The notes beneath the pieces were generated by a model. That model had not been told where the DNA came from, ran no database searches, and was given only the letters and a program-made list of their open reading frames with translations. A stretch of DNA of 64,000 nucleotides from a virus (lineage: Duplodnaviria; Heunggongvirae; Uroviricota; Caudoviricetes). Position numbers and translations under genes: made by a program. This document shows positions 9,099-44,820 of this stretch, in pieces. The DNA is taken from the IMG/VR virus record IMGVR_UViG_2690316068_000002; one strand, 5' to 3'. Within the stretch, counting starts at the first letter, position 1. Every line of letters starts with the position of its first letter.

Positions 9099-9142
9099 AA
9101 CGCATTCTCTCTACATGGGCGGCTTTCGCCGCCCAATATTGA

Positions 9143-10063
9143 TTATTCCTGTGCAGCAGTGACTTCTATGGTCGCTGTCGCTTTGTGGCTACCATCTTGG
9201 GTAGTAACCTCGATTGTGGCAGTACCAGCCGCAACGCCAGTTACAACACCGGTTTCGCTATCCACCGTTGCAAACTCGGTATTTTTGGATTCCCAAGTAA
9301 CGGTTTTATTTGTTGCTCCTGCCGGCTCGACATTTGCGGTCAGCTGAACAGTTTTGTTTGCCTCAACGGTTGTGCTATTTGGGTCGATTTCGACGCCGGT
9401 AACAGCCACAACAGGCGCAGTTACTTCCACCGTTGCAGTTCCCTTTTTGCTGCCATCTTGGGAAACGATCTCAATCGTCGCAGTGCCAACTTCTACACCA
9501 GTAACGTTCCCGCTCTGGTCTACCGTTGCCTTATCTTCATTTTTGGAAGACCAGGTAACAGCCTTATTCGTCGCATTTGACGGCTGAACATTCGCTTTCA
9601 GACTGACTGATTTCCCTTTCTCAACAGACGTTGATTCTGGCGTTACCGTTACGGATTGAACGGCTACCGGATTTACGGTGACTTCCACTGAAGCGGAAAG
9701 CTGGGTTTCCTGATCAGTTGCAGTAATTTTTACTTTGCCTGGTGCTACGCCAGTTACTAATCCAGTGCCGTTAACGGTTGCAATTTGGTCATTTGCTGAC
9801 TTCCAGGTGAATGAACTAGCACTCTTACCCATACTAATACCTGCACTAAGTTGAACAGTTTTCCCAACCAAAACTGACGGTGAAGCCGGGGTTATGTTTA
9901 CGGATTGGGAGAGGGGAACCGCCTGCAAACAAGCAGATAGCTGACTTTGTTGCCGCTCGGTTAAAGGTTCATCGGAGATAGAATTGGTAAATCCGGCACG
10001 GCACATATGCCCCGTAAAATCCGAAAATGCCTCTTCCGTAATCTTCATCTTTTGTTCTGGCAT
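9143..10063 (-). CDS. Ig-like (Big_2) repeat protein, probable capsid decoration protein
   Basis: Three tandem ~85-aa Ig-like repeats (KTVQLTANVEPAGATNKTVTWESKN...ATVD..GVVTGV..GTATIEV); immediately downstream of capsid gene. Confidence 0.6.
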   Translation of the reverse strand: MPEQKMKITEEAFSDFTGHMCRAGFTNSISDEPLTERQQSQLSACLQAVPLSQSVNITPASPSVLVGKTVQLSAGISMGKSASSFTWKSANDQIATVNGTGLVTGVAPGKVKITATDQETQLSASVEVTVNPVAVQSVTVTPESTSVEKGKSVSLKANVQPSNATNKAVTWSSKNEDKATVDQSGNVTGVEVGTATIEIVSQDGSKKGTATVEVTAPVVAVTGVEIDPNSTTVEANKTVQLTANVEPAGATNKTVTWESKNTEFATVDSETGVVTGVAAGTATIEVTTQDGSHKATATIEVTAAQE

Positions 10064-10136
10064 TTCTTGCTCCTACAAAAAGGGTGGGCGTATAGCCCAC
10101 CCTTAAACATAGATAATTACTTATCTACCACACTGA

Positions 10137-11012
10137 TTAAATTTTTACATTGGTCAGTGCAGCGATAGCCTTATCGTGCTTATTCGCCAGAGAGCAGTAC
10201 CACTTCACACGGGTACGTACTGCGTCTTTGTTCTGTACAGTACCAATGTTTTCAACAACGATACCTGCGTTATCGCCGCCATACAGACCAGTAACGCCGT
10301 TCTCTTCTGACAGATGCAAGCAGTAGATGCTTGCTTTGCCAGCATCGGTCGGGATGAAGTCGTTGATGATGAACGGAACGCCGTTATGACACAGCATCGG
10401 ACGACCGAAGTTCTCCATCATGATTTCAGACGGACCTACATTTACTGTACGCAGCAGCGCACGGTAAGCACGAAGGTGCTCTGAACGCATCATGATGCAG
10501 TCAGCACCAAGATCTTTCACCGCATCGACCAGTTCGTCGAACATAGAGAAAGTCATAGATGCACCGGCGATATCGATCTTCTGATCTGCGTGCATCAGGC
10601 GTGGAATACCGTCGAACGCTTTGTTGTTGGAGCTGGAGTCACCCAAAATCAGGTTGCGGCGGAACGCACGAGCCAGACCTTTAACTTTCTGACGAACCTG
10701 AATAGCCAACTGGTTATTGGTGTCGGCCATAGTGGTTGCCAGGAATTTATCAACGTCTACGTCACCAGCCAGAATACGCAGTTTCGCAACGCATTCTTCG
10801 AAGGTTGCTGCACCTTCAGGGATGGTGTCGTTAACGTCGATGAAGGTAGCTTCACTCAGCGTTTTTTCACGGTTGTACAGATATGCCTTTGAATTAATTT
10901 TCATAAAAGGCAGGATGGCAAACAGGTCATCGCGATCGATGATAGTTTCGATCACACCCTGTTCAAGTTCGTTGTTAGATAGCTTTTCAGCTTCTTCACG
11001 CAGTAATGGCAT
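10137..11012 (-). CDS. Major capsid protein (positional)
   Basis: 291 aa, strong codon usage, between scaffold-like and decoration genes; no motif-level proof of fold. Confidence 0.6.
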   Translation of the reverse strand: MPLLREEAEKLSNNELEQGVIETIIDRDDLFAILPFMKINSKAYLYNREKTLSEATFIDVNDTIPEGAATFEECVAKLRILAGDVDVDKFLATTMADTNNQLAIQVRQKVKGLARAFRRNLILGDSSSNNKAFDGIPRLMHADQKIDIAGASMTFSMFDELVDAVKDLGADCIMMRSEHLRAYRALLRTVNVGPSEIMMENFGRPMLCHNGVPFIINDFIPTDAGKASIYCLHLSEENGVTGLYGGDNAGIVVENIGTVQNKDAVRTRVKWYCSLANKHDKAIAALTNVKI

Positions 11013-11037
11013 CTATCAATTCCCTTTGATTTAGATG

Positions 11038-11925
11038 TTACTTAAGTCCAATTTTCCCCAGACCGGAGGCCAACTTATCCATAGTCGACTTGTTCTTCGG
11101 TTGGGATATTGTGTAGGTCGATTTGGAATGTGAGCCTACACCCTGCTTGGCTTCGCTACGCATCAATGCGTCAGCTTCCGGATCTGCCCGCACAATGCGT
11201 TCAATCGCGGATTCAAACGGCAACGGCTTACCTTCACCGTCAACCAGAACAGCTCGTTCTTTGTGACCTGCCGGTTTGTCATAACCCACTACGCTACCGT
11301 CTTCACCCACTTCAAAATGAGAACCGTAGATCACGCGGGCTTTTGCCGGGGTCATCAGAACTTTGTCACGTAGGAAGAGAGAGTTACTGAAGGAAGCGCC
11401 CACGGTCATCTCGACTAATTGAGATTTCAGTGATGCGTTTTCACTTTCCAGTGCTGCATAACGTTCGTCACGCTGTGCCAGCTCTGCCTGGTGTGCTTCG
11501 ATCATCTGTTTTTTAACAGCATCGAACTCACCACGACGCTCCAGTTCAGCTTGCTCCGCCTCACGACGTGCGTTTTCTGCGGCCTGTTCAGCTTCTAAAA
11601 GCTGGCGAGCACGAGCCGGATCGATATCACCGTACTGAGCAAGCTGATCGGCCAATGTGCGCTCTTTCTCTTTGCGCTTCATGTTCTCCTTCAGCAGTTC
11701 AGCACCAGCTTTCTTGGTTTTACGAAGTTCGGCCAGTAACTCTTCCTGAGTCATGCCAGCGTATTCGTCATCGCCCTTCGGCTGCTCTTTTTGTTCACCC
11801 TGTTTGTCAGGATCTTGTGTACTCTGCTCATTATCAGCAGCTACACCGCCAGCGCCTCCACGCTCATGCGCTTCAGCGACATCCATCAGACCACGACGGG
11901 CCAAAAGCATTTGCCACAGATTCAT
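11038..11925 (-). CDS. Scaffolding protein
   Basis: 295 aa, highly charged coiled-coil-type composition (EAEQAAENARREAEQAELERR...), between portal and capsid genes. Confidence 0.6.
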   Translation of the reverse strand: MNLWQMLLARRGLMDVAEAHERGGAGGVAADNEQSTQDPDKQGEQKEQPKGDDEYAGMTQEELLAELRKTKKAGAELLKENMKRKEKERTLADQLAQYGDIDPARARQLLEAEQAAENARREAEQAELERRGEFDAVKKQMIEAHQAELAQRDERYAALESENASLKSQLVEMTVGASFSNSLFLRDKVLMTPAKARVIYGSHFEVGEDGSVVGYDKPAGHKERAVLVDGEGKPLPFESAIERIVRADPEADALMRSEAKQGVGSHSKSTYTISQPKNKSTMDKLASGLGKIGLK

Positions 11926-11946
11926 AAAAATTCCTTTTGTTACTTA

Positions 11947-13521
11947 TCACTCGTTCTCTTGAGTAGATGAGTCCCCATTCCCTCGGGGTTGATCTTGCCC
12001 GCTTTCTTGGGCTGCACCACGATCATAAGTAAGTACTGACTTATTTTCAAGGGTATTTAGATCATTTTTTGGAGGAAAATTCAAGAGATCTTTATCAAAT
12101 TCCTTTTTCATCGCCTCAGTAATGTTCGGGAAAATCTTCTCAATAAGCATTTCCATCTGGTGACGACGTACAGAGTCCGGTGCCTGAAGTAATGACAGTT
12201 TCTCGGCAACAGAAAATTCATCAGTAAGGCCACGAATATCGAAACTTTCTGGATACGCAATTAAAGAGTGGTCTTCGTCCAGATCTACCCCCATCCATTT
12301 CGCAACCAGTAGCATGATTTGGCGTTCAGCCCTTTCCAGACGCTCTGCTTTTGTGACAAGCAAGCTATTTACACGCTGGAAGTCATACATTTTTGCGGCA
12401 CCAGATGAATTATCGATTCCCTGTGCGTTGTCCTGCTTCGTTCGCTCACCAGCTACACCAACTGAATGGTAGATTTCGTTAATCACCGTCTTAATCGTAG
12501 TGATGATCATCTGAGCTTGTTTCGGGTCTGGTGACAGATAAAACGGCTGGTTTCCACCTTCAGAATCGTAGGTGAAGACTCGCTTTGTGCCCATTTCAAG
12601 CACTTTAGTGTGGTTTTCATCACCAGGTAAAAGCGACTGTACCGGTATAGCCAACTGGCTAAATGTCTGATCCTGAATAATGGCATCAAGGTTTGACAGA
12701 TAGTTTGCAACCGCACGATCAAGATAAGCGATATCATCGATCAACGATGGGCTGAAATACGGTGATTCACTTTCTCCAATACAATCAACAGGAAACACAG
12801 GAACTACGCCGAGATTATGCGCGCCGCTGTCCTCTAAAATAACTTTTGCCTGACGACGACCTGCTCCACCAGCCCCCTTCTTCACTTCCTCACGGAACAG
12901 ATACCACTCGTTTTGTGTCCACAGACGATAACGTTGGTATTCCTGACCTGTAGAAGTAAAAGGATCTGCGTCATCGCGAGCGACTTCCACAATTAACGCC
13001 CATAACATATTCCCGTCGTCGTCCCATGCCACATCCAGCATTTGCTGAGGTGAAATCCAGTAGGCGTAGGCGCGAGCATCTTTCTTTTTCTCGTCAGCTA
13101 CTGACTCAACATCACCACTCATCGTGCTATCGACAACAACCCATATGCGACCGTAAATAGACGACTGCAAATCAATAGCGGCCATAAATGAGTCAATAGA
13201 GGCATTCTGGCGAGTCGCACGTTTCCAGAAATTGCGGATCTGCTCTGGTGCCTCTTCGATATTTCTATGAATGTCTTCTTTAAAGAGATATTTGTTGATG
13301 AGGTTTACCACCTCACGAGTGTGGTTGAAGCGATAAGCACGCTCAACTCGCTCCTTAAACTCCTGATCTCCCTCTTTAAAGTAACGAAAGATATTGTCTG
13401 TAAACCAACCACGCCCGCCAGCGTAAGTGCTGGCGAGGAAGTCCCAATGTTCTTTTTTCTTTTCGTATTCCGGGTGGCGTCGCGCCACCAGATCCTTAAT
13501 TTGTTTGTCGTTCAATTCCAT
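11947..13521 (-). CDS. Portal protein
   Basis: 524 aa, immediately downstream of large terminase and upstream of scaffold; acidic C-terminus. Confidence 0.7.
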   Translation of the reverse strand: MELNDKQIKDLVARRHPEYEKKKEHWDFLASTYAGGRGWFTDNIFRYFKEGDQEFKERVERAYRFNHTREVVNLINKYLFKEDIHRNIEEAPEQIRNFWKRATRQNASIDSFMAAIDLQSSIYGRIWVVVDSTMSGDVESVADEKKKDARAYAYWISPQQMLDVAWDDDGNMLWALIVEVARDDADPFTSTGQEYQRYRLWTQNEWYLFREEVKKGAGGAGRRQAKVILEDSGAHNLGVVPVFPVDCIGESESPYFSPSLIDDIAYLDRAVANYLSNLDAIIQDQTFSQLAIPVQSLLPGDENHTKVLEMGTKRVFTYDSEGGNQPFYLSPDPKQAQMIITTIKTVINEIYHSVGVAGERTKQDNAQGIDNSSGAAKMYDFQRVNSLLVTKAERLERAERQIMLLVAKWMGVDLDEDHSLIAYPESFDIRGLTDEFSVAEKLSLLQAPDSVRRHQMEMLIEKIFPNITEAMKKEFDKDLLNFPPKNDLNTLENKSVLTYDRGAAQESGQDQPRGNGDSSTQENE

Positions 13522-13547
13522 TTGAATAACCTTAGATAATTACTTAC

Positions 13548-14804
13548 CTATCTAGAACCACCAAGAATAACACGGTTTTTGACTGGATACCTACGATGTA
13601 CTGGATAGCCCAATGCGTCTGCACTATGCTCAATGCCACCTGTCTTATCCATATCTCGTGTTCCAGGCTTGTAGATGACTTTTTCCAATGAATCAATCAA
13701 ATGCTTGCACTTCGGATCGATATACAGCCGGATATCTCCAGATGCGGTCATCAGCATTCGGTTAACAGCATTAACACGATCCGCAATTGGCGGGTGCTTT
13801 TTCGAATAATCGACACGTAAGAATCCCTTCTCTTTGAATATGTCGACGTCAGACTCCCCGCGAGCATGTTGGCGATAAGCACCTGCCGGATCTGGAAATA
13901 CCGTTATCTGTGATTTCCAGCGCCAGAAGCGTCTCTCAAGCTCATCACAAACCTCTGCCGTGTTAGAGGAAAAGAGCACCAATTCATCAATTGCCCATAG
14001 CTCACCATTTGGCTGAGGTTGCAAAATTACTGAAGACATCGGGTCAATGTTGAAGTCCTGCCCTACCCATATAGGCAACCGAGGGTTGAACTGAAGCGGT
14101 TTTACATGCACGTTACGATCGAACGGGTAGTAAACGCGCCCGGACATGTTCTCAAAGCTCGCCAGGTACTCCTGAGCGAACGATTTCGGGTCCATATCGT
14201 TCTTAGCAGCTTCAATTTCCGCCGTAGGCACAAACGGAGAATCAGCAGTTACAAACTGCCAGCTCTTCCACTGTCCCTTTCTTTGCAGCTCTACGTTCTG
14301 GCCTATAGTCCACAGTTTGTGAAATTCCGAGAAGCCTTTTGGCGTACCAATGATCAGTGCACCGCCGCGTGTCGATGAAAGAGTAGGTCGTAACACCTTG
14401 TACCAAGTGTCAGCCTTCATATCCTGAAATTCATCAAGCACTACAAAATGCAACGCTACGCCGCGCAGAGTGTCAGGCTTATCAGCACCTTTGAGGGCGA
14501 TCTCCGAACCGTTCTTCAACACGATTGTCATCGTGGTGTCGTTCTTTTTCCTAACCCACTTACGAGGCAGAACTTCCTGTAGATCGTCCCACAAAATCTG
14601 GCGAGCCATCTGGTAAGTAGGAGCGACATACCAGACCCTTTGCTTTTTTTCCTTTGCCGCCGCACGAATAATAGTGGAGATCGACAACCGGGATTTTCCC
14701 CAGCGTCGACCAGCACAAACAACTTTAAATCGATGCGGAGACTGGAAGACTTTCATCTGTCCAGAATGCAGTTGCACAAGACTGAGCGAGGACGGGATTG
14801 CCAT
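13548..14804 (-). CDS. Terminase large subunit
   Basis: 418 aa; Walker A (CAGRRWGKS), Walker B (HFVVLDEFQD), C-terminal nuclease-type acidic motifs (WVGQDFNIDP). Confidence 0.85.
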   Translation of the reverse strand: MAIPSSLSLVQLHSGQMKVFQSPHRFKVVCAGRRWGKSRLSISTIIRAAAKEKKQRVWYVAPTYQMARQILWDDLQEVLPRKWVRKKNDTTMTIVLKNGSEIALKGADKPDTLRGVALHFVVLDEFQDMKADTWYKVLRPTLSSTRGGALIIGTPKGFSEFHKLWTIGQNVELQRKGQWKSWQFVTADSPFVPTAEIEAAKNDMDPKSFAQEYLASFENMSGRVYYPFDRNVHVKPLQFNPRLPIWVGQDFNIDPMSSVILQPQPNGELWAIDELVLFSSNTAEVCDELERRFWRWKSQITVFPDPAGAYRQHARGESDVDIFKEKGFLRVDYSKKHPPIADRVNAVNRMLMTASGDIRLYIDPKCKHLIDSLEKVIYKPGTRDMDKTGGIEHSADALGYPVHRRYPVKNRVILGGSR

Positions 14805-15436
14805 TATTCGTCCTCCCCTTCACTTCCATCATCTGTCGCGTCAAATTCGCTTAGAGCTTCTTCTTCCAACGTCTCAAGCAATTCGTCATCGATGATTTCA
14901 GGCTCGTCGTCTTCCTGACGTAATTTCGCCACCTGGGAAGGCGTAAGCTCACCAAATACCAGGTTCGGAATTTCTTCCTCGTCATTTTCCGCATGATCCA
15001 TGCCCAATGCTTTGGACGAAACTTCAAAGCATTTTGCAAGGGTATTACTGGCTCTCTGTAAGCTCTTGAGAGAATCCTCAATCGCCCCTAAAGGCTTACC
15101 CTCACGTTTGGCCGTAGTGACTTCGACCATCACCATCTGCCCCAACGCATACGCCCAGCCGTCATAACGTGTACGACGTTCTTCTATCTTTTCCGCACGG
15201 GCTTTAGCGCGAAGCTCTGCGTCAGATTTAAGAGACTCACGAACCATCTTCCCAACAGAGTCCGCGCCTTTCTCTAATCCTCGCTTTTTGAAATGTCTGG
15301 AGAGTGTTTCACGACGAATGCCGTACTCTTCCTCCAGCTTTGAGAGTGTATATTCGCCTGACGTCCATTTGGCTTCAGCTTCGGCCCACTCCGCTGGTGT
15401 CAGGCGAGTTTTTACCTCGTCTTTTTCGACCGTCAT
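14804..15436 (-). CDS. Terminase small subunit (putative)
   Basis: 210 aa immediately upstream of and abutting terL; N-terminal HTH-like region, acidic C-terminal tail. Confidence 0.5.
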   Translation of the reverse strand: MTVEKDEVKTRLTPAEWAEAEAKWTSGEYTLSKLEEEYGIRRETLSRHFKKRGLEKGADSVGKMVRESLKSDAELRAKARAEKIEERRTRYDGWAYALGQMVMVEVTTAKREGKPLGAIEDSLKSLQRASNTLAKCFEVSSKALGMDHAENDEEEIPNLVFGELTPSQVAKLRQEDDEPEIIDDELLETLEEEALSEFDATDDGSEGEDE

Positions 15437-15550
15437 AGATCCCTCTAAAACACACAGAGCGCGTCCATGCGCTCTAAAACAACTTGTTTACTGCATCTGC
15501 TAACCAACTTGTTTTCTGGGTTGTTTAATTAGGTCTGGCATGTCTTACGA

Positions 15551-17460: not shown

Positions 17461-18158
17461 GCAGCCATCTCCCCGGAAGAGATCTTCTCCGCATATGCCA
17501 CAAATGCGTCTACCCCGCTTTCTCCCGTCATTTCTTCCATGTGGGCAAGCAAATCACCAACAACAATGGCAGAGCCAGCAGGAAGCGTTTTAAAGCCCAA
17601 TACGTCGACAACACGTACTTCTTCCGCTGCAACTTCACGACTGATCTCGGTGTGTTCATCCTTCTGTCGTTTAGTTTCTTCGCCAAGATCGATAACTAGC
17701 GAGTCGGTGTCCATTTCTTCTGTCATGCTGCCAACGAGAACATTCAACTCACGCTCTTCAAAGCCGAAAACCTCGATATCGTCCAGAACAAGCGACTCAA
17801 GCTCTTTCTGTAGCTTAATTGCATCGTAATCAATGCTGGCAAGTCGGTTATCTTCAAGGCGCTTCGCACGAACCTCGTCATCACTGAGATCATCGCGAAC
17901 AATAACCGGTACGCGCTCAAGTCCAGCAAAAATTGCAGCCTCACGGCGGCCGTGGCCAGTAATAATTACGTCGTTCTTATCGACCGTAATTGGCTGGTCA
18001 AATCCGCGCTTTTTAATGGCTGCGGCTAGATCTCGGATCTGCTGTTCATCATGCTTTTTGGCATTCATCTCATAGGGAATAAGATCTGCCGGGTCGCGAT
18101 ATACGATTTCAAACTTTTTGGTCATTACATACGCTCCTTGTAGTAGTCGACCAGCCAC
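17457..18158 (-). CDS. ParB N-terminal domain (ParB/Srx-like) protein
   Basis: 233 aa; ParB-type motif ITGHGRREAA; acidic C-terminal half. Confidence 0.6.
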   Translation of the reverse strand: MAGRLLQGAYVMTKKFEIVYRDPADLIPYEMNAKKHDEQQIRDLAAAIKKRGFDQPITVDKNDVIITGHGRREAAIFAGLERVPVIVRDDLSDDEVRAKRLEDNRLASIDYDAIKLQKELESLVLDDIEVFGFEERELNVLVGSMTEEMDTDSLVIDLGEETKRQKDEHTEISREVAAEEVRVVDVLGFKTLPAGSAIVVGDLLAHMEEMTGESGVDAFVAYAEKISSGEMAA

Positions 18159-18823
18159 ACCAGAGCCTCACCAGCGTTCTCCATTTCATTACCGGTGTTA
18201 ATAGCCTGCTCTTTGATGATGTTTTTTATGGTTTCTGCAACACGATCTGACGCATCGAAAGTTACTTTGAAGCGCATGGTCTGATGTTCCGCCCCCACAC
18301 GTTCGGTTTTCTCTCGTTTGTCGGTATCGACAGGCTCATCACTACCACGAGACAACGCCTCCAGTGCTTCAAGGTCGATTGCCGCCTCTTTTGCTAAAAC
18401 CATCGAGATTTCGTCGTCATACGGGGCGATTTCAGACAGTTGATAGTCAAGTTCTGACTGAATTTCTTCAATGAAGCGTTGCAATGCGATTTGGTCGTCT
18501 TCACCGTATCGCTCGTTGTCCACCAGTGACATCTGTTTAGCTACGACATCGCTAATTTTGCCCACAGAAAGCACCGGAACCGTTGAAATTCCTTGCTCAA
18601 TAGCAGCACGCCAGCGATGTTCGCCGCCGAGGATTTCAAAAAATCCATCTTCAAGTTCACGAGCCAAAATTGGCTTAAAAAAGCCCAATTTTTCGATAGA
18701 ACCTTTCAGTTTTTCAAAATTCTGCGCACCAACCGAATTGGTGTTCCAGGTATTCGGGCGAAGGTTGGCAACATCAACCTGCAAAATCGTGATTTTTACA
18801 TCCATTTTATTGCTACAATCCAC
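18125..18823 (-). CDS. ParB-like nuclease domain protein
   Basis: 232 aa; ParB-box-like ILGGEHRWRAA. Confidence 0.55.
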   Translation of the reverse strand: MDCSNKMDVKITILQVDVANLRPNTWNTNSVGAQNFEKLKGSIEKLGFFKPILARELEDGFFEILGGEHRWRAAIEQGISTVPVLSVGKISDVVAKQMSLVDNERYGEDDQIALQRFIEEIQSELDYQLSEIAPYDDEISMVLAKEAAIDLEALEALSRGSDEPVDTDKREKTERVGAEHQTMRFKVTFDASDRVAETIKNIIKEQAINTGNEMENAGEALVWLVDYYKERM

Positions 18824-18887
18824 TAAGTAATCACTTACTTATTATAATAGCCAAATAACATACAAAAGGCACTAAGGAAAGAGGTTT

Positions 18888-20447
18888 ATGACTGTTCGGA
18901 TTGTATCTAACGCAGTAAATGCGCTTATTTCTGGCGCAGATGACAAGGTAAAGCAACTGGTGCAGCAAATGTTGAGCTACGAAGTCGAGACTGGCGACTG
19001 GAAGGGCACAAGCACGATGTTCAACTGGAGTAAAAACTCGTTCCCTGCTGGCTTTGCCAAGCCTGTAGCGGCGAACTTGAACAAGGCGGGCATCAAATGT
19101 GTTCATATCCGCAAAGACAAAGCCCCGGCGCTTGGTAAACCAAATCCGGCGGTTAACCCATTCCCATACAATCCTGATTATGCGTATCAGGATCAGACTG
19201 TGGAAACACTGGTTCGAGAGGGAATGATGATTGCGCAGATCGCTACTGGTGGCGGGAAATCTAATGTTGCCTGCAAAGCAGCTGCACGTATCGGTCGAAT
19301 GACATTATTTTTAACAACCCGCTCTGTTCTGATGTTTCAAATGGCCGAAAACTTCCAGAGATCCATCGACTACCGCGCCGAAAATGGCGAACCGTGGTTA
19401 AAGGGCCAAAAGGTTGGAGTCATTGGCTCGGGTGAGTTCCAGGTATCACGACATATCAACGTCGCTACAGTTCAAACTCTGGCAAGTTTCCTTGAAGAAC
19501 CACCACGCGATGCAACACCAGATAAAAAGAGCTACCACCTCAAACGTCGGGAGCTAGTGAAACGCTTCCTTTCAAGTGTGTCTCTGCTTATTCTGGAAGA
19601 AGCGCATGAGTCTTCAGGCTCTAATTTCTATGACATTGCCAGATTATGTGTGAACGCAGACTATCGTCTGGCGCTTACGGCCACGCCGTTCATGAAGGAT
19701 TCTACAGAAGCCAACATGCGTCTGATGGCTGTGGCCGGTCGAATTGAAATTAAAGTCACAGAAAAGTACCTGATTGATCGAGGCATTCTGGCAAAACCGT
19801 ACTTCCTTTATCATAAAGTTGCTTACAAGCCAGACGAGGTCAGAATCAAGGCGGAACTTGCCAACAAACACCTTAATTTTAGAGTAGGTATGAGCACAGC
19901 CTACCAAAAGGCTTATCAGTTGGGGATCGTGTATAATTTGGGACGTAACGAGGCCATTGTGCGCGAAGCATTGCTCTATAAGCAACATTCTCTCAATTGC
20001 ATGACTCTGGTTCGTCTTAAACGCCACGGGCAAATCCTGATGGAGATGATGAAAGAGTCCGGCCTTAGAGTTGACTTCATCTATGGGGAATCGAACCAGG
20101 CGACAAGGCAAGCAAAGCTGAACAGTTTAGCGTCTGGAGAAATAGATGTTTTAATAGGCTCGACTATTCTGGATGTCGGTGTTGATGTGCCAAGCGTGGG
20201 CGCGGTCATTCTTGCTGGTGGTGGGAAAGCAGAAGTTGAAATGAGGCAGCGTGTCGGTCGAGGCTTACGAGCCAAGAAGAATCAGGCAAACGTGTGTTTT
20301 ATCACTGATTTCATTGACATTAGCAACAAATACCTGTTGTCTCACTCTTATGAGCGAAAACACATCATCGACACCACACCTGGCTTTGCAGAAGGTGTAT
20401 TGCCTATTGATGGCGCATTCGATTTTGGAGTTCTGAAACGAGATTAG
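18888..20447 (+). CDS. SF2 (DEAD/DEAH-like) helicase
   Basis: 519 aa; Walker A TGGGKS, motif II LEEAH, motif III TATP, motif VI QRVGRGLR. Confidence 0.8.
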   Translation: MTVRIVSNAVNALISGADDKVKQLVQQMLSYEVETGDWKGTSTMFNWSKNSFPAGFAKPVAANLNKAGIKCVHIRKDKAPALGKPNPAVNPFPYNPDYAYQDQTVETLVREGMMIAQIATGGGKSNVACKAAARIGRMTLFLTTRSVLMFQMAENFQRSIDYRAENGEPWLKGQKVGVIGSGEFQVSRHINVATVQTLASFLEEPPRDATPDKKSYHLKRRELVKRFLSSVSLLILEEAHESSGSNFYDIARLCVNADYRLALTATPFMKDSTEANMRLMAVAGRIEIKVTEKYLIDRGILAKPYFLYHKVAYKPDEVRIKAELANKHLNFRVGMSTAYQKAYQLGIVYNLGRNEAIVREALLYKQHSLNCMTLVRLKRHGQILMEMMKESGLRVDFIYGESNQATRQAKLNSLASGEIDVLIGSTILDVGVDVPSVGAVILAGGGKAEVEMRQRVGRGLRAKKNQANVCFITDFIDISNKYLLSHSYERKHIIDTTPGFAEGVLPIDGAFDFGVLKRD

Positions 20448-24865: not shown

Positions 24866-25348
24866 TTACACGCCATCAAGGATGTGGATGCGGTTGCTTG
24901 CGTATACATTCAGCATAAAGTTAGCGCAAAACAGTTTCCATGTATCAACGCCAGCGGTATACGTAATGTTTTTGCATTTAATCGCATTGTTGGCGATCCG
25001 CATCCCCTGCGATACTGCTTCATCGTCGGAAAATTTGAACGACGATTGAGTTTTAATCCAGACAGAAATCTGCGTAGCGAACTCAATCAGCTTGGACTGG
25101 CAGAATCGCCCGGAGCGTACCGGGAAGACGAACGTTCCGAATCCAGAATTTACCACATATGCTTTCTCAAATACCCGCGAGTAACGACGATTGCCAATGA
25201 TGTCGCGTGCAATAATGCATTTTTCTTGTGCTGACAGTTCTACCGTCTCATTGTCGCGCCATGCACCAAGTACTCGTTTTTCAATGTCAGAGAACGTTAC
25301 AGCGATATTGCCATGTGCGGGTGCGTTTACAGTAGCGATAAAATTCAT
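24866..25348 (-). CDS. Hypothetical protein
   Basis: 160 aa ORF; palindromic motif-1 immediately upstream (25366-25402). Confidence 0.5.
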   Translation of the reverse strand: MNFIATVNAPAHGNIAVTFSDIEKRVLGAWRDNETVELSAQEKCIIARDIIGNRRYSRVFEKAYVVNSGFGTFVFPVRSGRFCQSKLIEFATQISVWIKTQSSFKFSDDEAVSQGMRIANNAIKCKNITYTAGVDTWKLFCANFMLNVYASNRIHILDGV

Positions 25349-25698
25349 GATTGATTCCTTATCGTAAATAACAAATTGTTTTCTTGTTGGTGTTAATTAT
25401 CGTTGTACGAATAAGGCGTCAAAGTGGAAAGTTGCGGTAGCCGGACGGGAACAGGTGGGTTTGTCGGTTGCCTGGAGGTAAGAGGTTGGTGTTTTTAGCC
25501 TGCGGGAAACAGGATGGTCATTTAAGGCCACCAATGCTGATGGCCTTAATAATTATCGACCTATTACGCTAAGGATCTTTTCCTCAACTGATTTGTTGTT
25601 GCGACTAAACTGCCTTGCGTATCTGATGACAGAAGAGGCGTTTTGCTTTCTGACCATCTCGGCTCTTTCCTTCAGGCGTTTCTTGAAATCGCCCATAT

Positions 25699-27177: not shown

Positions 27178-27525
27178 TTACGCGAATACCTCAAGAAATT
27201 CCTGAACGTCCCAATGCTGGACAAGGTGAAGATAGACCTTAGAAATCACGTCATTCTCGCTATCGCATGTGAAGTAGTACTTCTGGCTGCGGTTGTATGT
27301 GTCTACACAAAATTCGCTCATATCCATAAAGTCAGCATCTTCACCCATGTCGCAAATCATCAAAGCAGGTGCGTCATCACGAGTCATCAGCTCAAGCACC
27401 CACCGCGAATTGATCAGAGTGGAAGACCAACCTTCTAACTCATAAAACTGATCAAACTCTTTTTGAGTTAATTTCTTGATTTGGTTGATGTCGATATTTG
27501 CAAACATAAAGCAATCCTTAAACAA
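27178..27525 (-). CDS. Hypothetical acidic protein
   Basis: 115 aa ORF; motif-1 immediately upstream (27527-27565). Confidence 0.5.
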   Translation of the reverse strand: MFKDCFMFANIDINQIKKLTQKEFDQFYELEGWSSTLINSRWVLELMTRDDAPALMICDMGEDADFMDMSEFCVDTYNRSQKYYFTCDSENDVISKVYLHLVQHWDVQEFLEVFA

Positions 27526-27864
27526 GATGTTTTCTTAATGGTGTTATTATCGCAATAACGCACAGGCGAAAAAGGATTTTATTCCGGTGAATGTGGTTTT
27601 GGCAGTGAGTTTTCAGGTTCAGTACCGAGTACACTTTTTACATTATTCTGATTTAGTGGCCGAAGGTGGCTGGTGGGCAGAATAATCCTCTCCCCGAAAA
27701 CCTACTGAAATCGATTGTGACCCGTTGGCTGTCTGGCACAATTACGCTGTAGCTGGGCATTCAGAGGGAGTCCAACGGTAAGTTAGTCCGCCTGCACGTG
27801 AGCGCCTCTCTTCTTCCCGCACATTACAGGTGTGTAGCCGCAACTCTCCCTCTCGCTATACCGG

Positions 27865-28010
27865 TACGCCGCCGTTCCTGAACCGGCATCGATCCTTTTC
27901 CCGAAATCCATACAGGCAACTCGACCGTTTCCCTGAAAATCCCCAGCCGTTCCCCGAAGGCAACCCAGCCATTTCTGTAGCGGGATGCAACCTTTTCCCT
28001 GTATGGACCG
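27865..28010. repeat. Iteron-like direct repeat cluster 2 (CCGTTTCCCTGAAA-type)
   Basis: Six imperfect direct copies (gccgttcctgaa, ccttttcccgaaa, accgtttccctgaaaa, gccgttccccgaa, gccatttctg, accttttccctg) at ~24-30 bp spacing; same repeat family as 24700-24860. Confidence 0.65.
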
Positions 28011-28039
28011 AAGGCTGACCGTAGGGGTGTTACGGGGGA

Positions 28040-28920
28040 TAAAATCAGGAGTTGAATAAATACGAAAAAGGAGGCGACACCCCTCCTTCCCTCCCCACTT
28101 ATACATACCTGGCTTCTTCGCTATACATGTTGTGTTTTCTTCGTGTTTTATCTGTCTCAACCTCTCTATAGGCGTTAATGCTCACTCCTTCCAGAACGTT
28201 CTATACGGCGACTATTTCTGTTGGTGAATTGGGTGTGTTGTTTTCTCTGTCGGTGTATGTGGTTTCGTTCGTTTTGCGGTGGTTCTTCTAGGGGGTGTTC
28301 TCGTCGTTTTGGTGATTGTTCTTCTCCATGTATGGAGTAATGGCAGGTGGGCGATTCCTTTCGTTATTGTGTTTGAGTTGTTTGTCTGGAGTGTGTGAAA
28401 GGCTTTTGTAGTTATTCGTGTATTGGGTAATGGCGTTTCCCGTGATTGTTATGCTTCGAGTCTTTTGGGATTGAGAGAATCCTTGCGGTTACAGGCTTCG
28501 TTGGGGTTTCAGTGATTCTGGTGTTTCTTCGCTGTTTGGGGAATGGCGTGTCGTGGGTATCGCGCGTATGAATGTTTTCGGATTGCCTGTGAAAGTTAGG
28601 TTGGTTGTCCGGTAGCCTGGGAAGAAGAGGTGGGTCTTTTCGGTAGCCTGCCATAAAGAGGTTGGTTGTTTTGGGTAATGGCATATGTGTTATTTAGTTG
28701 TTTTGTTATGCCTGAAAATAAGTTGTTTATATGGTTGTGTAACGCAACGGGAGCGATTTTGAGCGTGTGTTTTTGTTGGTAGTGTGTTGGGTCGTCTGTG
28801 GTGAAAATTGGACGCTGTGGCGCTGTCTGCTGCGTAGAATTACGGGTATAAGAAGTGATGTGTGAATACGTCAATTTTTTAGACCAAATCGGGTGAAAGC
28901 GTTGACGTTTCGTTGATCTG
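28040..28920. other. ORF-free, strongly GT-skewed region with loose ~100-bp periodic motifs
   Basis: About 75% G+T on the plus strand over ~0.9 kb; recurring GG(G/A)TAATGGC and GGTAGCCTG...AGAGGTnGGT motifs; no credible ORF on either strand. Confidence 0.6.
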
Positions 28921-29081
28921 TTATTTAGTTGTTTTCTTATTGGTATAAACAACGTTAACCTATTGATATTTAAAGGTGTGATTGCAGGTATGGAAGAAGA
29001 GTAGTGGCGATCAACGGATTCTTATAGAAAAGAATCAAATTGTGACCGCCATTATCAACTGATTGATTAAGCTAATTACAC

Positions 29082-30311
29082 TCAAACATCCCCGTTCTTA
29101 ATCCACTGCCTGACTTGCTCGTCTTGTGCGACTTCTTTCTCATGTTTGGCAATATACAAGTCTGGCAATAGGGGTGGAGCGAATTCAGGCTCTGTCGCAC
29201 GCCACTTTTCATATGCGTCACGCATGGATTTCTCAACATTCCAATGCTCCAACTCTTGGTATTCAATCGGCCAGTTATCCTGCAATCTCTTCACTGCATT
29301 AGCCAGGTCGTATCGGAAGTAAGGATTAAGACCAATGAAATTACCAGCCAGCATGTCATCAACCTCCTTCACTCTGGCAATCTTAGAAAACTTACCAATA
29401 GCAATGTTGAGGTCCCAATCTGACACGAACAACAAAAGTGCTGCAAATGCCAGAAACTTAGCTTCCCCGTATGCTCTGTCGCTAACCGTTTTTGTCTGAA
29501 ACTCAATGTAATTGCCCATCACAAAACTAGTAAGCTTATAGGTCTTACTTATCTCGTCCTCCAAATGCGATGGATCGAGAATTGTGCGGTCACGATTATT
29601 GTTTATGTGTTCTAAGATTACAGCAATGTCTCTATGTGAGACTGAAATTTCACGCAATTGCTGGAGAGTCTTGATGTGAACTCTTAGCACCTCTTTGTCA
29701 ATCGCACGCTTCCAAGAAAAACCAGGCACAGTAACCTGAATGGGCGCGAAAGGTAGAATATCAGGAGTTGTCCATGCTAGATATGCATCACGTAACCCAC
29801 TAATATAATAAAGCCAGTCTAAATGCTCGCTTTCTAACCATATTTCAAATGTGGAATCCTTTCGCTTATTGAAGAACCATTCCCTCATCTGCCACATTTT
29901 TTCTTGAGTAAATATCCCTTCCTGTATGCCGGCACAGACCAGCTTTCGTATTACCTGCGAATACTTTGTTCGATCTTTTGTGAATGAGACAAGGTGCTGC
30001 TTCACCTCAGATGTTAGTCTATCTCCATAGAAATCACATGATGGATGATGGCCTTGACCATCTTCACCGGTAAATCTGAAATGCGCCTTCTTGTGATAGC
30101 CACCATTCCTAGTGGCTCTAACGAACGAACCACCTCCAACTTTGCAAATGGGGCAGATGATATCGTCACGGGCAATAGCATGAACCGAGCTGTCATCTAA
30201 ATTCTTTAGCGCCAAGTACTGCTCAGGATCGACTTCTTTTTGTAACGATTTTGAAAAAGCGGTATCAGTCATTCCAAGCTCCGAGCAAGGGGTTATTTGT
30301 TCAATTATCAT
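29082..30311 (-). CDS. Hypothetical protein with N-terminal Cys/His zinc-ribbon-like motif
   Basis: 409 aa; CPICK...(28 aa)...HHPSCDF cluster near N-terminus; no other recognisable domain. Confidence 0.55.
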   Translation of the reverse strand: MIIEQITPCSELGMTDTAFSKSLQKEVDPEQYLALKNLDDSSVHAIARDDIICPICKVGGGSFVRATRNGGYHKKAHFRFTGEDGQGHHPSCDFYGDRLTSEVKQHLVSFTKDRTKYSQVIRKLVCAGIQEGIFTQEKMWQMREWFFNKRKDSTFEIWLESEHLDWLYYISGLRDAYLAWTTPDILPFAPIQVTVPGFSWKRAIDKEVLRVHIKTLQQLREISVSHRDIAVILEHINNNRDRTILDPSHLEDEISKTYKLTSFVMGNYIEFQTKTVSDRAYGEAKFLAFAALLLFVSDWDLNIAIGKFSKIARVKEVDDMLAGNFIGLNPYFRYDLANAVKRLQDNWPIEYQELEHWNVEKSMRDAYEKWRATEPEFAPPLLPDLYIAKHEKEVAQDEQVRQWIKNGDV

Positions 30312-30903: not shown

Positions 30904-32937
30904 TTACTTAACTTGGTGGCCTGGTTTAGCACCAGCATCCGGGCTTAACAGGAAGATATCTTTTCCGCCAGGGCCAGCAGCCATCACCATGCCTTCAGAG
31001 ATACCGAAGCGCATTTTACGCGGAGCCAGGTTAGCCACCATAATTGTGTGACGACCAATCAGTGCCTGTGGGTCTGGATAAGCAGAACGGATGCCTGAGA
31101 AGACATTACGCTTTTCACCACCGAGATCCAGTGTCAGGCGCAACAGTTTGTCAGAACCTTCAACAAACTCCGCGTTTTCAATCAGCGCCACACGCAGGTC
31201 AACTTTGGCGAAGTCGTCAAAGGTGATGGTTTCCTGAATCGGGTCGTCAGCCAGTGGGCCAGTTACCGGTGCGGCTGTGGCTTTCACTTCTTCTTTGGAT
31301 GCTTCCACCAGTGCTTCCACCTGTTTCATATCGATACGGTTATACAGTGCCTTGAACGGATTCACTTTATGGCCCAGCAGCGGTTGCTGGATACCATCCC
31401 AGGTCAGTTCTGTATTCAGGAATGCTTCTGCACGTTCAGTCAGTTTCGGCAGTACCGGTTTCAGGTACGTCATCAGCACGCGGAACAGGTTAATGCCCAT
31501 AGAGCAAATCGCCTGCAGATCGGCATCGCGCCCTTCCTGCTTCGCCACCACCCACGGAGCCTGTTCATCGACATAGCGGTTAGCCAGGTCAGCCAATGCC
31601 ATGATTTCACGGATAGCTTTACCAAATTCGCGGCTTTCCCATGCTTCGCCAATCACTTCAGCGGCATCAGTAAAGGTTTTGTACAGTTGCGGGTCAGCCA
31701 GTTCGCTTGCCAGCACGCCGTCAAAACGCTTGTTGATAAAGCCTGCATTACGGGAGGCCAGGTTAACCACTTTGTTCACGATATCGGCATTCACGCGCTG
31801 AACGAAATCCTCCAGGTTGAGATCGATATCATCAATGCGCGAAGAGAGTTTCGCAGTGTAGTAGTAACGCAGGCTGTCGGCGTCAAAATGATTCAGCCAG
31901 GTGCTGGCTTTAATAAAGGTGCCGCGAGACTTGGACATCTTCGCGCCGTTCACCGTCACATAGCCATGAACAAACAGGTTGGTCGGCTTGCGGAAGTTGC
32001 TGCCTTCCAGCATGGCAGGCCAGAACAGGCTGTGGAAGTAAACAATATCTTTACCGATGAAGTGGTACAGCTCGGCGGTGGAGTCTTTCTTCCAGTATTC
32101 ATCGAAGCTGGTGGTATCGCCGCGCTTGTCGCACAGATTCTTGAAGGAACCCATGTAGCCAATCGGCGCGTCCAGCCAGACGTAGAAATATTTGCCCGGC
32201 GCGTTCGGAATTTCAAAACCGAAGTAAGGCGCATCTCGGGAGATATCCCACTGTTGCAGGCCGGATTCAAACCATTCCTGCATTTTGTTCGCCACCTGCT
32301 CCTGCAACGCGCCGCTGCGGGTCCATGCCTGCAACATTTCGCTGAAAGAAGGCAGATCAAAGAAGAAGTGTTCGGAATCACGCATTACCGGGGTAGCGCC
32401 AGAAACCACCGATTTCGGCTCGATCAATTCAGTCGGGCTATATGTTGCGCCGCAGACTTCACAGTTATCGCCGTATTGATCTGGCGCTTTACATTTCGGG
32501 CAGGTGCCTTTTACAAAACGATCCGGCAGGAACATGCCTTTTTCCGGGTCGTACAACTGAGAGATAGTGCGGTTTTTAATAAAACCGTTCTCTTTCAGGC
32601 GAGTATAGATAAGCTCAGACAACTGACGGTTCTCTTCGCTGTGCGTCGAGTGATAGTTGTCATAGCTGATGTTAAAGCCTGCGAAATCAGTCTGGTGTTC
32701 CTGACTCATTTCGCCAATCATCTGCTCCGGTGTGATACCAAGCTGCTGTGCTTTCAGCATGATCGGCGTACCGTGGGCATCGTCGGCACAGATGAAATTA
32801 ACCTCGTGGCCGCGCATTCGCTGGTAACGAACCCAGACATCAGCCTGGATGTGCTCCAGCATATGGCCGAGGTGGATTGAGCCGTTAGCGTACGGCAGCG
32901 CGCACGTCACCAGAATTTTCTTCGCGACTTGGGTCAT
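30904..32937 (-). CDS. metG: Methionyl-tRNA synthetase
   Basis: 677-aa product from [29 protein letters not shown] (HIGH motif), KMSKS motif, C-terminal tRNA-binding domain; near-identical to enterobacterial MetG from memory. ORF-track upstream extension (to 33066) rejected. Confidence 0.95.
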
Positions 32938-33094
32938 AGTAGGCATTACTTCTTTGTAGTGAAAAGGGGCTTGATAGTAACAAAATGGCCTTATGTCTGC
33001 CATGTGATAACAGCATTTCTCATAAATGATTAAATGTCGTAGCTGGAGTACACTACAAGGCGACAATTGCGCAAATTAAAATAAAGGAGACGGG

Positions 33095-38112: not shown

Positions 38113-38510
38113 TTTCTTTCACCTTCAATGTTCGTGGCGCTGGCAAGATTGTCCTTGCGAAGAAGAGCGGCTATGCGCTTACTTCCATCCGAGATAACGC
38201 CCTCGTAATACTCACGCTGCTCGTTGAGTTTTGATTTTGCCAACTCCAGTTGTTTTGTTAGTTCCGCAATACGGCAAACATCGTTGATACGCGTTTCCTC
38301 TAATGCGTTGATCTCATCCAGTAGTGCCAGCACGGTTTCTGGTCCGGCCAGAAATTTGAAGGCGTTGAGGGCATCAATATCAACACCGCTATCTTTAAGT
38401 TCCTGTTCGCATATCAGATCATCATCAACTGGCAACATTAACAGGCGTTCCATTGCCGGAATTGCACGCTCTGCCGCCTCACGCAGTGCCTGATAGTCAA
38501 TCTTGCTCAC
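38109..38510 (-). CDS. Hypothetical protein
   Basis: 133 aa acidic ORF. Confidence 0.45.
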
Positions 38511-39007
38511 TGGATGACTCCTTTACGAAGCTGTTCAGCAATACTTACGCATATCTCTGCGCCTCTAATCAGCCCCGGAACGTTCTTGTTTGGCCCAACT
38601 TCACCATCAACAAAATCAATCATCGCGTTACGAGCCATATCCACGCCCTGCGCACGTACTTCAGCCAGAAAAGCATCGGTGGCTGGAGTCTCCGTTAATT
38701 CGCTAACCCAATTATCTCCGTGTTCCTCGGCACACATCGCATCGAATGCTCGCTCAGATTCTTTCAGGGCTGCATTCTCCGCCGCTAATGCGTCTCTCTG
38801 CGCTCGCAACTTCTCAATTTCGGCAGCCATGTAGTAACCAACCATAGCGAAAGTGGCGAAAGGGTAGTCAGAATCATCAGGAGATACGGAGGCCATTAGC
38901 AGACCATCGTGCATGTTCTGGCTTCCATCAGTGATGGATACCGCATAAGAATCGCTGGTTTCCCGTTTATACAATACGACGACCGGGTTCTTGATTTTCT
39001 CTCTCAT
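38507..39007 (-). CDS. Hypothetical protein
   Basis: 166 aa ORF. Confidence 0.45.
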   Translation of the reverse strand: MREKIKNPVVVLYKRETSDSYAVSITDGSQNMHDGLLMASVSPDDSDYPFATFAMVGYYMAAEIEKLRAQRDALAAENAALKESERAFDAMCAEEHGDNWVSELTETPATDAFLAEVRAQGVDMARNAMIDFVDGEVGPNKNVPGLIRGAEICVSIAEQLRKGVIQ

Positions 39008-44780: not shown

Positions 44781-44820
44781 CTTAAACAAGTTGTTTTCTT
44801 ATTGGCTTTATTGTGATGTG
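44781..44820. promoter_or_regulatory. Palindromic upstream motif family 1, representative copy
   Basis: cttAAACAAgTTGTTTtcttattggctttattgtgatg; AAACAA-N-TTGTTT inverted repeat about 20-45 bp upstream of the start codon. Confidence 0.5.

Follow-up and report, generated by a model that had tools for sequence, protein, structure and literature searches.

In enterobacteria, the Rho helicase preferentially loads onto unstructured RNA that is rich in A and C and poor in G. Rho-dependent terminators and their Rho utilization (rut) sites, e.g., tR1 of phage lambda, share an untranslated, C-rich, G-poor, and unstructured RNA that follows right after a stop codon. Every tested template with a C>G bubble of more than 78 bp or with a bubble area of more than 700 led to Rho-dependent termination in vitro (Nadiras et al., 2018, PMC6144790). 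The percentages of C, CA, AAC, ACA, CAC, G, GG, GTG, and GGT were among the best separators of the termination classes, and G-rich motifs were inversely correlated with termination (PMC6144790). In addition, the RNA polymerase of E. coli is reported to be attenuated by CA-rich elements in the nascent RNA, which bring about premature, Rho-dependent termination (PMC7714431). Here we describe a gene-free region of about 1.5 kb, positions 27526-29081 of a 64-kb stretch of DNA (the window) that is part of an SSU5/pHCM2-type phage-plasmid of E. coli with an element size of about 110 kb. The region is a real non-coding element under purifying selection, and its minus strand contains a single uninterrupted C>G bubble of unusual size. 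We tentatively propose that it is a bidirectional, mainly Rho-dependent transcriptional insulator or attenuator with embedded regulator sites.

The C>G bubbles were determined as described by Nadiras et al. (2018; PMC6144790), i.e., with windows of 78 nt. The minus-strand bubble at 28160-29081 has an area of 15445 % x bp and is a candidate for a giant Rho-loading tract. It is 2.6-fold larger than the next largest bubble on either strand of the window, and no comparable bubble was found in a further 36 kb of the plasmid. It begins where the upstream gene ends, at the stop codon, and is conserved in eight lineages, with areas of 8600-15400. Two plus-strand bubbles, at 27736-28029 (area 3360) and at 28025-28238 (area 1708), are conserved in all lineages. 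Compared with the minus strand of the whole window, the minus strand of the tract has elevated levels of CA (12.4% versus 6.5%) and AAC (5.6% versus 1.9%) and a reduced level of GG (1.8% versus 5.3%); CA, AAC, ACA, and CAC are enriched two- to fourfold, while G motifs are depleted. The tract also contains a chain of five YC dimers with linkers of 9-13 nt, whereas at least four are needed for a rut site. It therefore has the properties of known rut sites, i.e., a bubble of at least about 80 nt, a YC chain, the CA, AAC, ACA, and CAC descriptors, low structure, and an untranslated location downstream of a co-directional gene. In contrast to known rut sites, the region is about ten times longer than needed, contains invariant blocks, phased direct repeats, and promoter-like blocks at both ends, and is conserved as a unit across genera; its Rho dependence is predicted. 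It also resembles the CA-rich RNA polymerase-binding aptamers (RAPs/iRAPs; Sedlyarova et al., 2017, as summarized in PMC7714431), which are CA-rich nascent RNAs that attenuate transcription. However, RAPs are short and lie within genes or on antisense strands, whereas the region would be a dedicated tract of 650-900 nt.

The full gene-free region (27508-29081) is located between two minus-strand genes, 27178-27525 on the left, with a start at about 27507 or 27525, and 29082-30311 on the right, with the stop codon at 29082. The initial annotation had stated that 27526-29081 contains no credible open reading frame (ORF), and this proved to be correct. With the pipeline PGAP the region is left without annotation in 246 E. 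coli genomes and in almost every one of 839 plasmids, and no ORF is conserved in position or frame across nine lineages. ORFs of 30-125 amino acids (aa) exist on both strands, and their frame and extent shift between lineages. In an alignment of 17 lineages there was no third-position excess in column entropy in any candidate frame (0.42/0.51/0.45 and 0.44/0.51/0.47), and no 3-nt periodicity was detected in the column entropy or base composition of the region (power at 3 nt of at most 0.7). The flanking genes served as a positive control and exhibited a divergence of 0.5-0.65 at third versus 0.12-0.25 at second codon positions. The region is non-coding. A hidden conserved coding frame, one of two outcomes that had been named as arguments against a functional non-coding region, was searched for by ORF comparison, entropy, and periodicity and was not found. 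It is extremely improbable that the region is decaying or neutral DNA, composed of pseudogenes and dead promoter cassettes, or that it encodes hidden small hydrophobic peptides on the GT-rich strand. The annotators of the phages Cyrano and SSU5 called ORFs in the region, GT-rich DNA results in hydrophobic ORFs of 26-45 aa (e.g., 28666-28782), and units of the region look like gene-leader cassettes. However, the region has a divergence of only 0.24-0.38, far below that of the neighbouring third codon positions, the ORFs vary as described above, and deletion variants are absent from more than 120 sampled homologs. Coding capacity in the form of hydrophobic plus-strand peptides or of the ORFs annotated in Cyrano and SSU5 was ruled out by the selection and periodicity tests.

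For the selection test, 17 non-redundant full-length homologs with pairwise identities down to 60% were aligned. The fraction of sites that differ between lineages is 38% in sub-region A (27526-27750), 33% in B (27751-28110), 26% in C (28201-28830), and 24% in D (28831-29081), while in the neighbouring genes 50-65% of the third codon positions differ. Therefore, the region is constrained about as strongly as the surrounding genes. Its least conserved segment is 28106-28165, and conservation ends abruptly at about 29063. The nucleotide comparison also revealed that the region is kept while the right-hand gene is replaced between lineages, i.e., its conservation is independent of its flanks. The second of the two outcomes mentioned above, a region that is highly variable or absent in close relatives, was thus not observed, and conservation together with the lack of a coding signal bears out the initial view that the region is non-coding and functional.

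The base composition of the region is as conspicuous as its conservation. A G+T content of about 75% had been reported for the plus strand from 28.04 to 28.92 kb; the bias was confirmed and has no equal in the window, but the value was slightly too high, because G+T amounts to 67.2% over 28040-28920 and to 73.1% over 28200-28830. The peak 600-nt window (start at 28204) has 73.8% G+T, compared to a mean of 49.7% and a standard deviation of 3.1 for the 64 kb (z about +8), and this extreme is unmatched elsewhere in the window. Eight diverged homologs were checked, and all of them share this skew. The GT-rich core (sub-region C, 28200-28830, plus strand) has 73% G+T; the G-rich part of the plus strand has a GC skew of +0.4 to +0.5, and 17 GGG runs versus a single CCC run were counted on this strand. 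Sub-region B (27751-28110) has a high G+C content (52-56%), with much C on the plus strand, and it contains about five TTTCCC(T/C)G(A)AA motifs. Exchanges between G and T are the commonest class of differences in the core (27%, versus 12-13% in sub-regions A and B), and thus the keto-rich composition itself is maintained. The G+T composition of the core is itself under selection. A regular periodicity of about 100 bp or about 31 bp across the core was not found; only a local triple of 31-bp units is real, and a weak T-tract signal exists at 32.8 bp (power 10).

The main job of the region would be to stop or to meter leftward (minus-sense) transcription, which would arrive from the minus-strand gene whose end, in each lineage, is a few bases away from the right edge of the region. 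These genes are lineage-variable and include genes for lysozyme inhibitors. Once translation has ended at 29082, RNA polymerase would enter about 0.9 kb of untranslated, A+C-rich, G-poor, and nearly unfoldable sequence. Transcription would be terminated within or just beyond the tract by Rho loading and CA-rich attenuation, because such RNA loads Rho and CA-rich RNA attenuates the polymerase. An intrinsic terminator at 28091-28065 could act as a backup in the E. coli and Klebsiella lineages. In this way the conserved cluster of small genes downstream would be insulated from the variable right-hand genes; each of the small genes has its own promoter/operator cassette. Plus-sense transcription from a conserved rightward promoter would also meet a C>G tract, namely that of sub-region B, and therefore the spacer is predicted to block both directions. 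The 31-bp repeats, four to six GTAATGGC units, and copies of an early operator/leader motif most likely bind a phage regulator, which would tie the spacer to early-gene control, e.g., by regulated read-through. We infer minus-strand transcription, the action of Rho, and protein binding at the repeats from the sequence.

Several points weigh against a Rho-based insulator. The direction of transcription is deduced from the sequence, and the conserved rightward promoter at 27715-27742 implies that plus-sense transcription occurs as well. About 80 nt of a rut site suffice for Rho, and the model does not account for the retention of 650-900 nt; moreover, an intrinsic terminator could achieve insulation within 40 bp. 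The blocks between the motifs are conserved in sequence and not merely in composition, which the Rho model does not explain, and the strong T>A skew is explained by Rho just indirectly. A promoter-like block at 29058-29031 would fire straight into the terminator zone, which would be odd for a pure insulator. Last, YC, ARN, and Shine-Dalgarno (SD)-like motifs are not more frequent than expected from composition.

The initial annotation had also considered a long non-coding RNA. Rfam yielded no match at the gathering threshold in the whole window, only a single chance match of 19.8 bits (E = 2.3). Neither strand of the region is more stably folded than shuffled sequences (single-sequence z-scores of +1.3 to -1.7), and conserved secondary structure was not detected in any 150-nt window on both strands (structure conservation index of at most 0.54, covariation term of -1.5). 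Covariance and structure prediction on the homologs, which had been recommended, thus revealed no conserved fold on either strand, and a known or structured RNA was ruled out. The minus-sense RNA over 28201-28830 would consist of 40% A, 33% C, 13% G, and 14% U; because the minus-sense RNA is A+C-rich, it can hardly base-pair, and its predicted folding energy is just -124 kcal/mol over 861 nt. What is left of the idea is its weak form, a plausible CA-rich minus-sense transcript that would be essentially unfoldable, while a structured RNA has to be dismissed.

Such an unstructured long RNA might act in trans. CsrB and RsmZ are sponges for CsrA, and CrcZ with its CA motifs is a sponge for Hfq/Crc. 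A minus-sense CA-rich RNA could likewise titrate an RNA-binding factor, e.g., Rho, Hfq, or a phage regulator of the GCCAUUA-type early leaders, or a plus-sense GU-rich RNA could pair with CA-rich leaders of early mRNAs, similar to GcvB or P1 c4. The region shares with the protein-sponge RNAs that it is non-coding and has several short conserved motif copies that are kept single-stranded. Four to six invariant GTAATGGC / GCCAUUAC units and three longer repeats in an unfoldable context would be ideal for motif display, 28927-28943 is identical over 17 nt to the early-gene leader at 44789-44805 and further leader-like copies exist, and the strong conservation is independent of the flanks. However, the region lacks GGA hairpins, motifs for Hfq (ARN), YC, and SD-like motifs are not enriched in the minus-sense RNA beyond composition, and both the transcript and its partner protein are hypothetical. 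A full-length sponge is also unlikely because Rho should cut short an untranslated C-rich RNA. The region shares 88 11-mers with the rest of the window, versus 49 in shuffles, and these have no strand bias; widespread antisense complementarity was therefore rejected, and little surplus complementarity is left apart from the leader motif. Furthermore, the variable positions within the 31-bp repeats are transversions (A/T, G/T), which fit protein recognition better than RNA pairing, and the exact 31-bp phasing suggests DNA rather than RNA. Overall, we regard a trans-acting RNA as quite unlikely.

The repeats had been described as loose motifs that recur at intervals of about 100 bp. The GGnTAATGGC-type units are real, but they have no regular 100-bp period: four G(G/A)GTAATGGC units are present on the plus strand at 28335-28344, 28425-28434, 28538-28547, and 28673-28682, with spacings of 90, 113, and 135 bp, and six copies exist in other lineages. 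The second motif, GGTAGCCTG...AGAGGT, does not recur at such intervals; instead, it belongs to three tandem 31-bp direct repeats at 28579-28671 (plus strand) with the pattern (C)GGT(A/T)GCCTG-N7-(A/T)GAGGT(G/T)GGT-N5. No insertions or deletions disturb their register in any of the 17 lineages; four units are present in one Klebsiella lineage, and three exact-pattern matches are present in some E. coli-type contigs. The reported reappearance of a motif at 25440-25500 could be confirmed, because a paralogous triple on the plus strand occupies 25435-25525, 3.2 kb from the main array and directly upstream of the promoter -35 of the minus-strand gene 24866-25348 (four pattern matches versus 0.01 expected). 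No further copies were found in the 64-kb window or in the sequence L109. In SSU5, the array is located in a divergent promoter region. The recurrence just upstream of a promoter suggests that a DNA-binding regulator acts at both loci. The earlier idea of a protein-binding array is thus supported for the three phased repeats and plausible for the GTAATGGC units, with binding predicted from the sequence. In analogy to the smaller array, a promoter just downstream of the main array was considered and discarded, because inspection revealed no conserved -10 element. The helix-turn-helix (HTH)-like protein SSU5_116 was rejected as the binder of the repeats because it is lineage-specific.

The CGGTAGCCTG cores of the 31-bp repeats are reminiscent of ops, the element GGCGGTAGnnTG that recruits RfaH, a protein known from all host genera. 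If they were ops-like elements, host RfaH would enable Rho-resistant rightward transcription antisense to the early arm. Ops positions 3-12 are matched in two of the three units, the rightward promoter is predicted upstream, and the repeated CGGTAGnnTG cores resemble RfaH ops/JUMPStart elements. However, 10 of 12 positions match, and they do so on the plus strand only, opposite to all genes; the complete GGCGGTAGnnTG in an operon leader is not present. G1 and G2 are missing, G4 or A7 is altered in some copies, and no plus-strand operon lies downstream. Ops-like matches across the window are near chance (49 versus 35 +/- 5), and this is one match among many motifs that were considered. Recruitment of RfaH is consequently very improbable.

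The repeats could also belong to a lytic (phage-mode) DNA replication origin, which might be primed by an R-loop. Iteron-type origins carry helically spaced direct repeats and AT-rich neighbours, and in ColE1, T4, and mitochondrial DNA initiation is RNA-primed and the primer is processed by RNase H. In the first form, an initiator would bind to the 31-bp repeats and the GTAATGGC units, beside AT-rich unwinding segments (28685-28740, 28900-28990). Like lambda ori, P1 oriR/incA, and P4 ori with crr, the region has direct repeats in helical register (31 bp are about three turns) next to AT-rich segments, and a second cluster is 3.2 kb away, which recalls P4 ori/crr; the AT-rich conserved block D (38% GC) contains an inverted repeat. 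In contrast to these origins, an adjacent initiator gene and DnaA boxes are lacking, GATC is not enriched, and extreme keto skew is not among their known features. The cumulative GC skew does not switch at the site, and the second repeat cluster is located in an ordinary promoter region. The replicon of the plasmid itself was excluded as an explanation, because repA is about 33 kb away and has its own iterons, A(T/A)CCACTRTAGAGAG at 21-bp spacing, of unrelated sequence.

In the second form, a plus-sense G-rich RNA from the promoter at 27715-27742 would form an R-loop, and the RNase HI of the element would process it into a primer. This would resemble ColE1 RNA II, T4 oriF/oriG, and the mitochondrial D-loop, with which it has in common a non-coding stretch of about 1 kb, a terminal promoter, conserved blocks, a G-rich non-template and G+T-rich strand, and an RNase H encoded by the element. 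The rightward promoter is predicted in 12 of 17 lineages, with a plus-strand gene in its place in the others, and the GC skew and the GGG runs of the plus strand would fit. The element encodes DnaE and other replication genes in addition to RNase HI (rnhA), and strands that are frequently single-stranded, e.g., the H strand of mitochondrial DNA, bear a keto (G+T) skew as their signature. However, the G content is moderate (33%) and thus lower than typical R-loop predictors require, and the C>G tract of sub-region B, which intervenes between the promoter and the G-rich part, would expose the plus-sense RNA to Rho; initiation at this site is hypothetical.

The dispensability of the region for plasmid maintenance would also be in line with a lytic origin. 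In the plasmid pECAZ155_2 (L111), an IS3 element has inserted into the GT-rich core at 28297-28299, with a 3-bp overlap that presumably represents the target duplication, and the plasmid is still maintained. Yersinia pestis pMT1 (L200, 16703-17480) has retained the terminase gene (96% identity), but about 40 kb of its early/replication arm, the region among them, have been lost, and IS1541 is found at the junction. Therefore, the region is not required for plasmid maintenance. Taken together, we consider a lytic origin, in either form, to be rather doubtful. A more general formulation, which we likewise judge to be rather unlikely, is that the region is a new phage regulatory device that exploits the extreme amino/keto asymmetry of the strands. 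It could do so either through a long, structure-free, CA-rich RNA that titrates or engages Rho or a leader-binding phage regulator and thereby times the expression of early genes, or as an R-loop-primed lytic origin that is built like the mitochondrial control region, i.e., with a promoter, conserved blocks, a displaced G+T-rich strand, and the RNase HI of the element. A packaging or partition site, which had also been suggested, received no support, because the terminase and ParB-like genes are about 12-14 kb away and ParA/ParB genes are not adjacent. A type III antitoxin (ToxI-like) or CRISPR array was ruled out, since there are just three units and no downstream gene on either strand.

Returning to the proposed insulator, the region contains several promoter-like and operator-like sites. 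The downstream gene is preceded by a minus-strand promoter/5'-leader cassette (27519-27575), which is composed of an extended -10 element TGCGATAAT, followed by CCATTAAGAAAACA, the palindrome AAACA-N3-TGTTT, and an SD sequence. This cassette recurs in front of at least seven early genes on the minus strand. In the window, 17 copies of the palindrome were counted, compared to 3.9 expected copies, and they probably serve either as operators for a phage repressor or as leader hairpins. Its sites, e.g., at 15477, 25369, 26133, 27036, 27520, 30756, 44784, 45513, and 55734, are located in the 5' leaders of many minus-strand early genes, inside the shared cassette. A second dispersed palindrome type, AAGTA...TACTT (e.g., AAGTAAGTGATTACTTAG and GTAAGTACATACTTAC), is present upstream of several genes of the sequence L011, i.e., at 10791-10874 and upstream of 18792-19187, 31068-31772, and 38395-38988. 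It was not captured by a fixed-spacing search in the window and may represent another operator family.

The promoters within the region were called on the basis of conservation alone, and comparable scores arise about once per kb by chance. The predicted rightward promoter (27715-27742, plus strand) reads TTGTGA-16-TGgCACAAT here and TTGAGA-16-TGgCAGAAT in other lineages. A distance of about 180 bp separates it from the leader cassette on its left, and it is divergent from the cassette promoter. Its score is by itself not significant, and the hexamers and the TG are kept, with a variable spacer, in the 12 lineages mentioned above. The predicted leftward promoter (29031-29058, minus strand; TTGATA-16-GATTCT here, TTGACA-16-GAGGAT elsewhere) is present in all 17 lineages and coincides with the right edge of conservation. 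Its spacer is invariant as well, and the block may be a protein-binding site rather than a promoter. The intrinsic terminator-like hairpin with a U tail (28065-28091, minus strand) belongs to a conserved block at the transition from sub-region B to C and is found at the same site in Klebsiella. In other lineages its stem is rich in G.U pairs, and it has no proof from covariation, because 95% of the cells pair versus 94% in shuffles.

Further conserved sites are concentrated in the right half. A leader-like motif copy, TGTTATTTAGTTGTTTTGTTAT, and an operator-like palindrome (AAATAAGTTGTTT here, GAAAACAACTTGTTTA in other lineages) are located at 28685-28728. The most conserved blocks belong to sub-region D (28844-29063). 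It starts with a GGGTATAAGA block (28844-28853), an inverted copy of CACTTATAC at 28096-28104, and contains the inverted repeat ACGTCAA / TTGACGT (28868-28874 / 28902-28908), a leader-like motif (28916-28944), and the conserved blocks GGCGATCAACG (29006-29016), TCTTATAG (29020-29027), and GTGACCGCCA (29042-29051). At the left end, a Chi octamer GCTGGTGG (27669-27676, plus strand) is conserved in the lineages of E. coli and E. fergusonii, whereas Klebsiella has GCTGGTGA at this place and the SSU5 lineage lacks the octamer; it may be incidental. This single Chi site is not part of a cluster, KOPS are likewise not clustered in the region, and no signatures of DnaA, IHF, or GATC are conserved in it.

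The region is wide-spread among phage-plasmids of Enterobacterales. In a megablast search with window positions 27400-29200, phage Cyrano matched with 97% identity and 259 plasmids were retrieved. A more sensitive search with 27526-29081 detected the region in 839 PLSDB plasmids, mainly of Klebsiella (430), Escherichia (224), Enterobacter (90), Salmonella (49), Citrobacter (25), and Cronobacter (10). It is also present in phage SSU5, in several Klebsiella phages, and in 246 of 5426 complete E. coli genomes, where it is plasmid-borne in every case. Another 97 IMG/VR stretches and about 75-80 metagenome contigs contain it with identical architecture and orientation throughout. The region was full-length (about 1.5 kb) and in one orientation in every homolog examined, including the 17 non-redundant lineages, and thus an invertible segment bounded by the GGTATAAG inverted repeats was ruled out. 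A scan for distant homologs in genomes retrieved only Kluyvera homologs, one copy on a contig of a Bacillota metagenome-assembled genome, and one on a 604-nt Catenulispora contig. Two Acinetobacter matches have no further similarity, and the one that was inspected sits within an ORF and looks like a chance match.

The distribution of the region was compared with that of the terminase, which is encoded in 799 plasmid records (protein identity of at least 80%). Terminase carriers and region carriers are equally numerous in Enterobacter, Citrobacter, Cronobacter, and Shigella, and their numbers almost agree in Salmonella (50 versus 49), whereas the region is in surplus in Escherichia (206 versus 224) and Klebsiella (342 versus 430). 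Y. pestis pMT1 deviates in the other direction, with a terminase gene but no region. The Klebsiella surplus is at least partly due to truncated remnants within large plasmids. In Klebsiella plasmids of 157-260 kb (L010, 3388-4793), for example, the right-hand 730 bp or so of the region persist as a remnant that is cut off by an IS3-family transposase fragment and adjoins a group II intron and a type I restriction-modification system. Recombination breakpoints inside the non-coding region were found in three mosaic lineages (L007, L089, L099) in comparison with the window and L005; in L007, the left part is L005-like and the right part window-like. A distant relative, an SSU5-like plasmid of Acinetobacter baumannii (L112, terminase 60% identical), has a gene-free A-rich gap of 1.35 kb (17541-18890) at a comparable map position. 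This gap contains two adjacent C>G bubbles on opposite strands with areas of about 3500-3650 and has no extreme keto skew.

The genes that flank the region are all of unknown function. The right-flank gene is co-directional, i.e., on the minus strand, in all eight annotated homologs that have an adjacent one; it encodes a 409-aa protein here and a shorter or different hypothetical protein in other lineages, which have genes such as those for a GIY-YIG nuclease, the Ivy lysozyme inhibitor, or a DUF1380 protein beyond it. Five of the 17 lineages, the SSU5 lineage, have a plus-strand ORF of 81 aa (phrog_23830) where the others have the rightward promoter-like site. In SSU5 (L003), lineage-specific plus-strand genes are found at the edges of two repeat-bearing intergenic regions (2604-2846 and 329-601); they encode the 81-aa protein and SSU5_116, a weakly HTH-like, "repressor-like" protein of 90 aa. 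In comparison with window positions 27519-27539, pLAU-OXA1 (L110) has an extra 357-bp unit with a 216-bp gene at the leader cassette, flanked by a 21-bp motif duplication. Recombination at the shared leader thus seems to add and remove the small early genes as cassettes. Farther to the right, the window contains a full-length gene for a methionyl-tRNA synthetase (30904-33066, minus strand; Pfam tRNA-synt_1g, E = 5e-166) and a plus-strand gene for a MinD/ApbC-like ATPase (about 33.1-34.2 kb). Genes for RNase HI, DnaE, NrdAB, ThyA, and dihydrofolate reductase are present elsewhere on the element.

SSU5/pHCM2-type phage-plasmids are common in clinical Enterobacterales and carry resistance genes, but their biology, including the control of lysis versus lysogeny and the lytic origin, is almost unstudied. 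The region is conserved as the genes of the element are, yet it has no annotation and no Rfam family, and in searches for non-coding RNAs, origins, and RNA-seq of SSU5/pHCM2 we found no paper that mentions it. In our reading, it would be an exceptionally long rut-type tract with embedded regulator sites. Should the region turn out to insulate or attenuate via Rho, it would represent a natural rut tract of unusual clarity and size, and it would offer a handle on how phage-plasmids keep their early genes silent beside variable neighbours. If it is instead an origin or an RNA decoy, a missing core function of these elements would be revealed. Either way, the region is a cheap genetic target for understanding or curing these plasmids.

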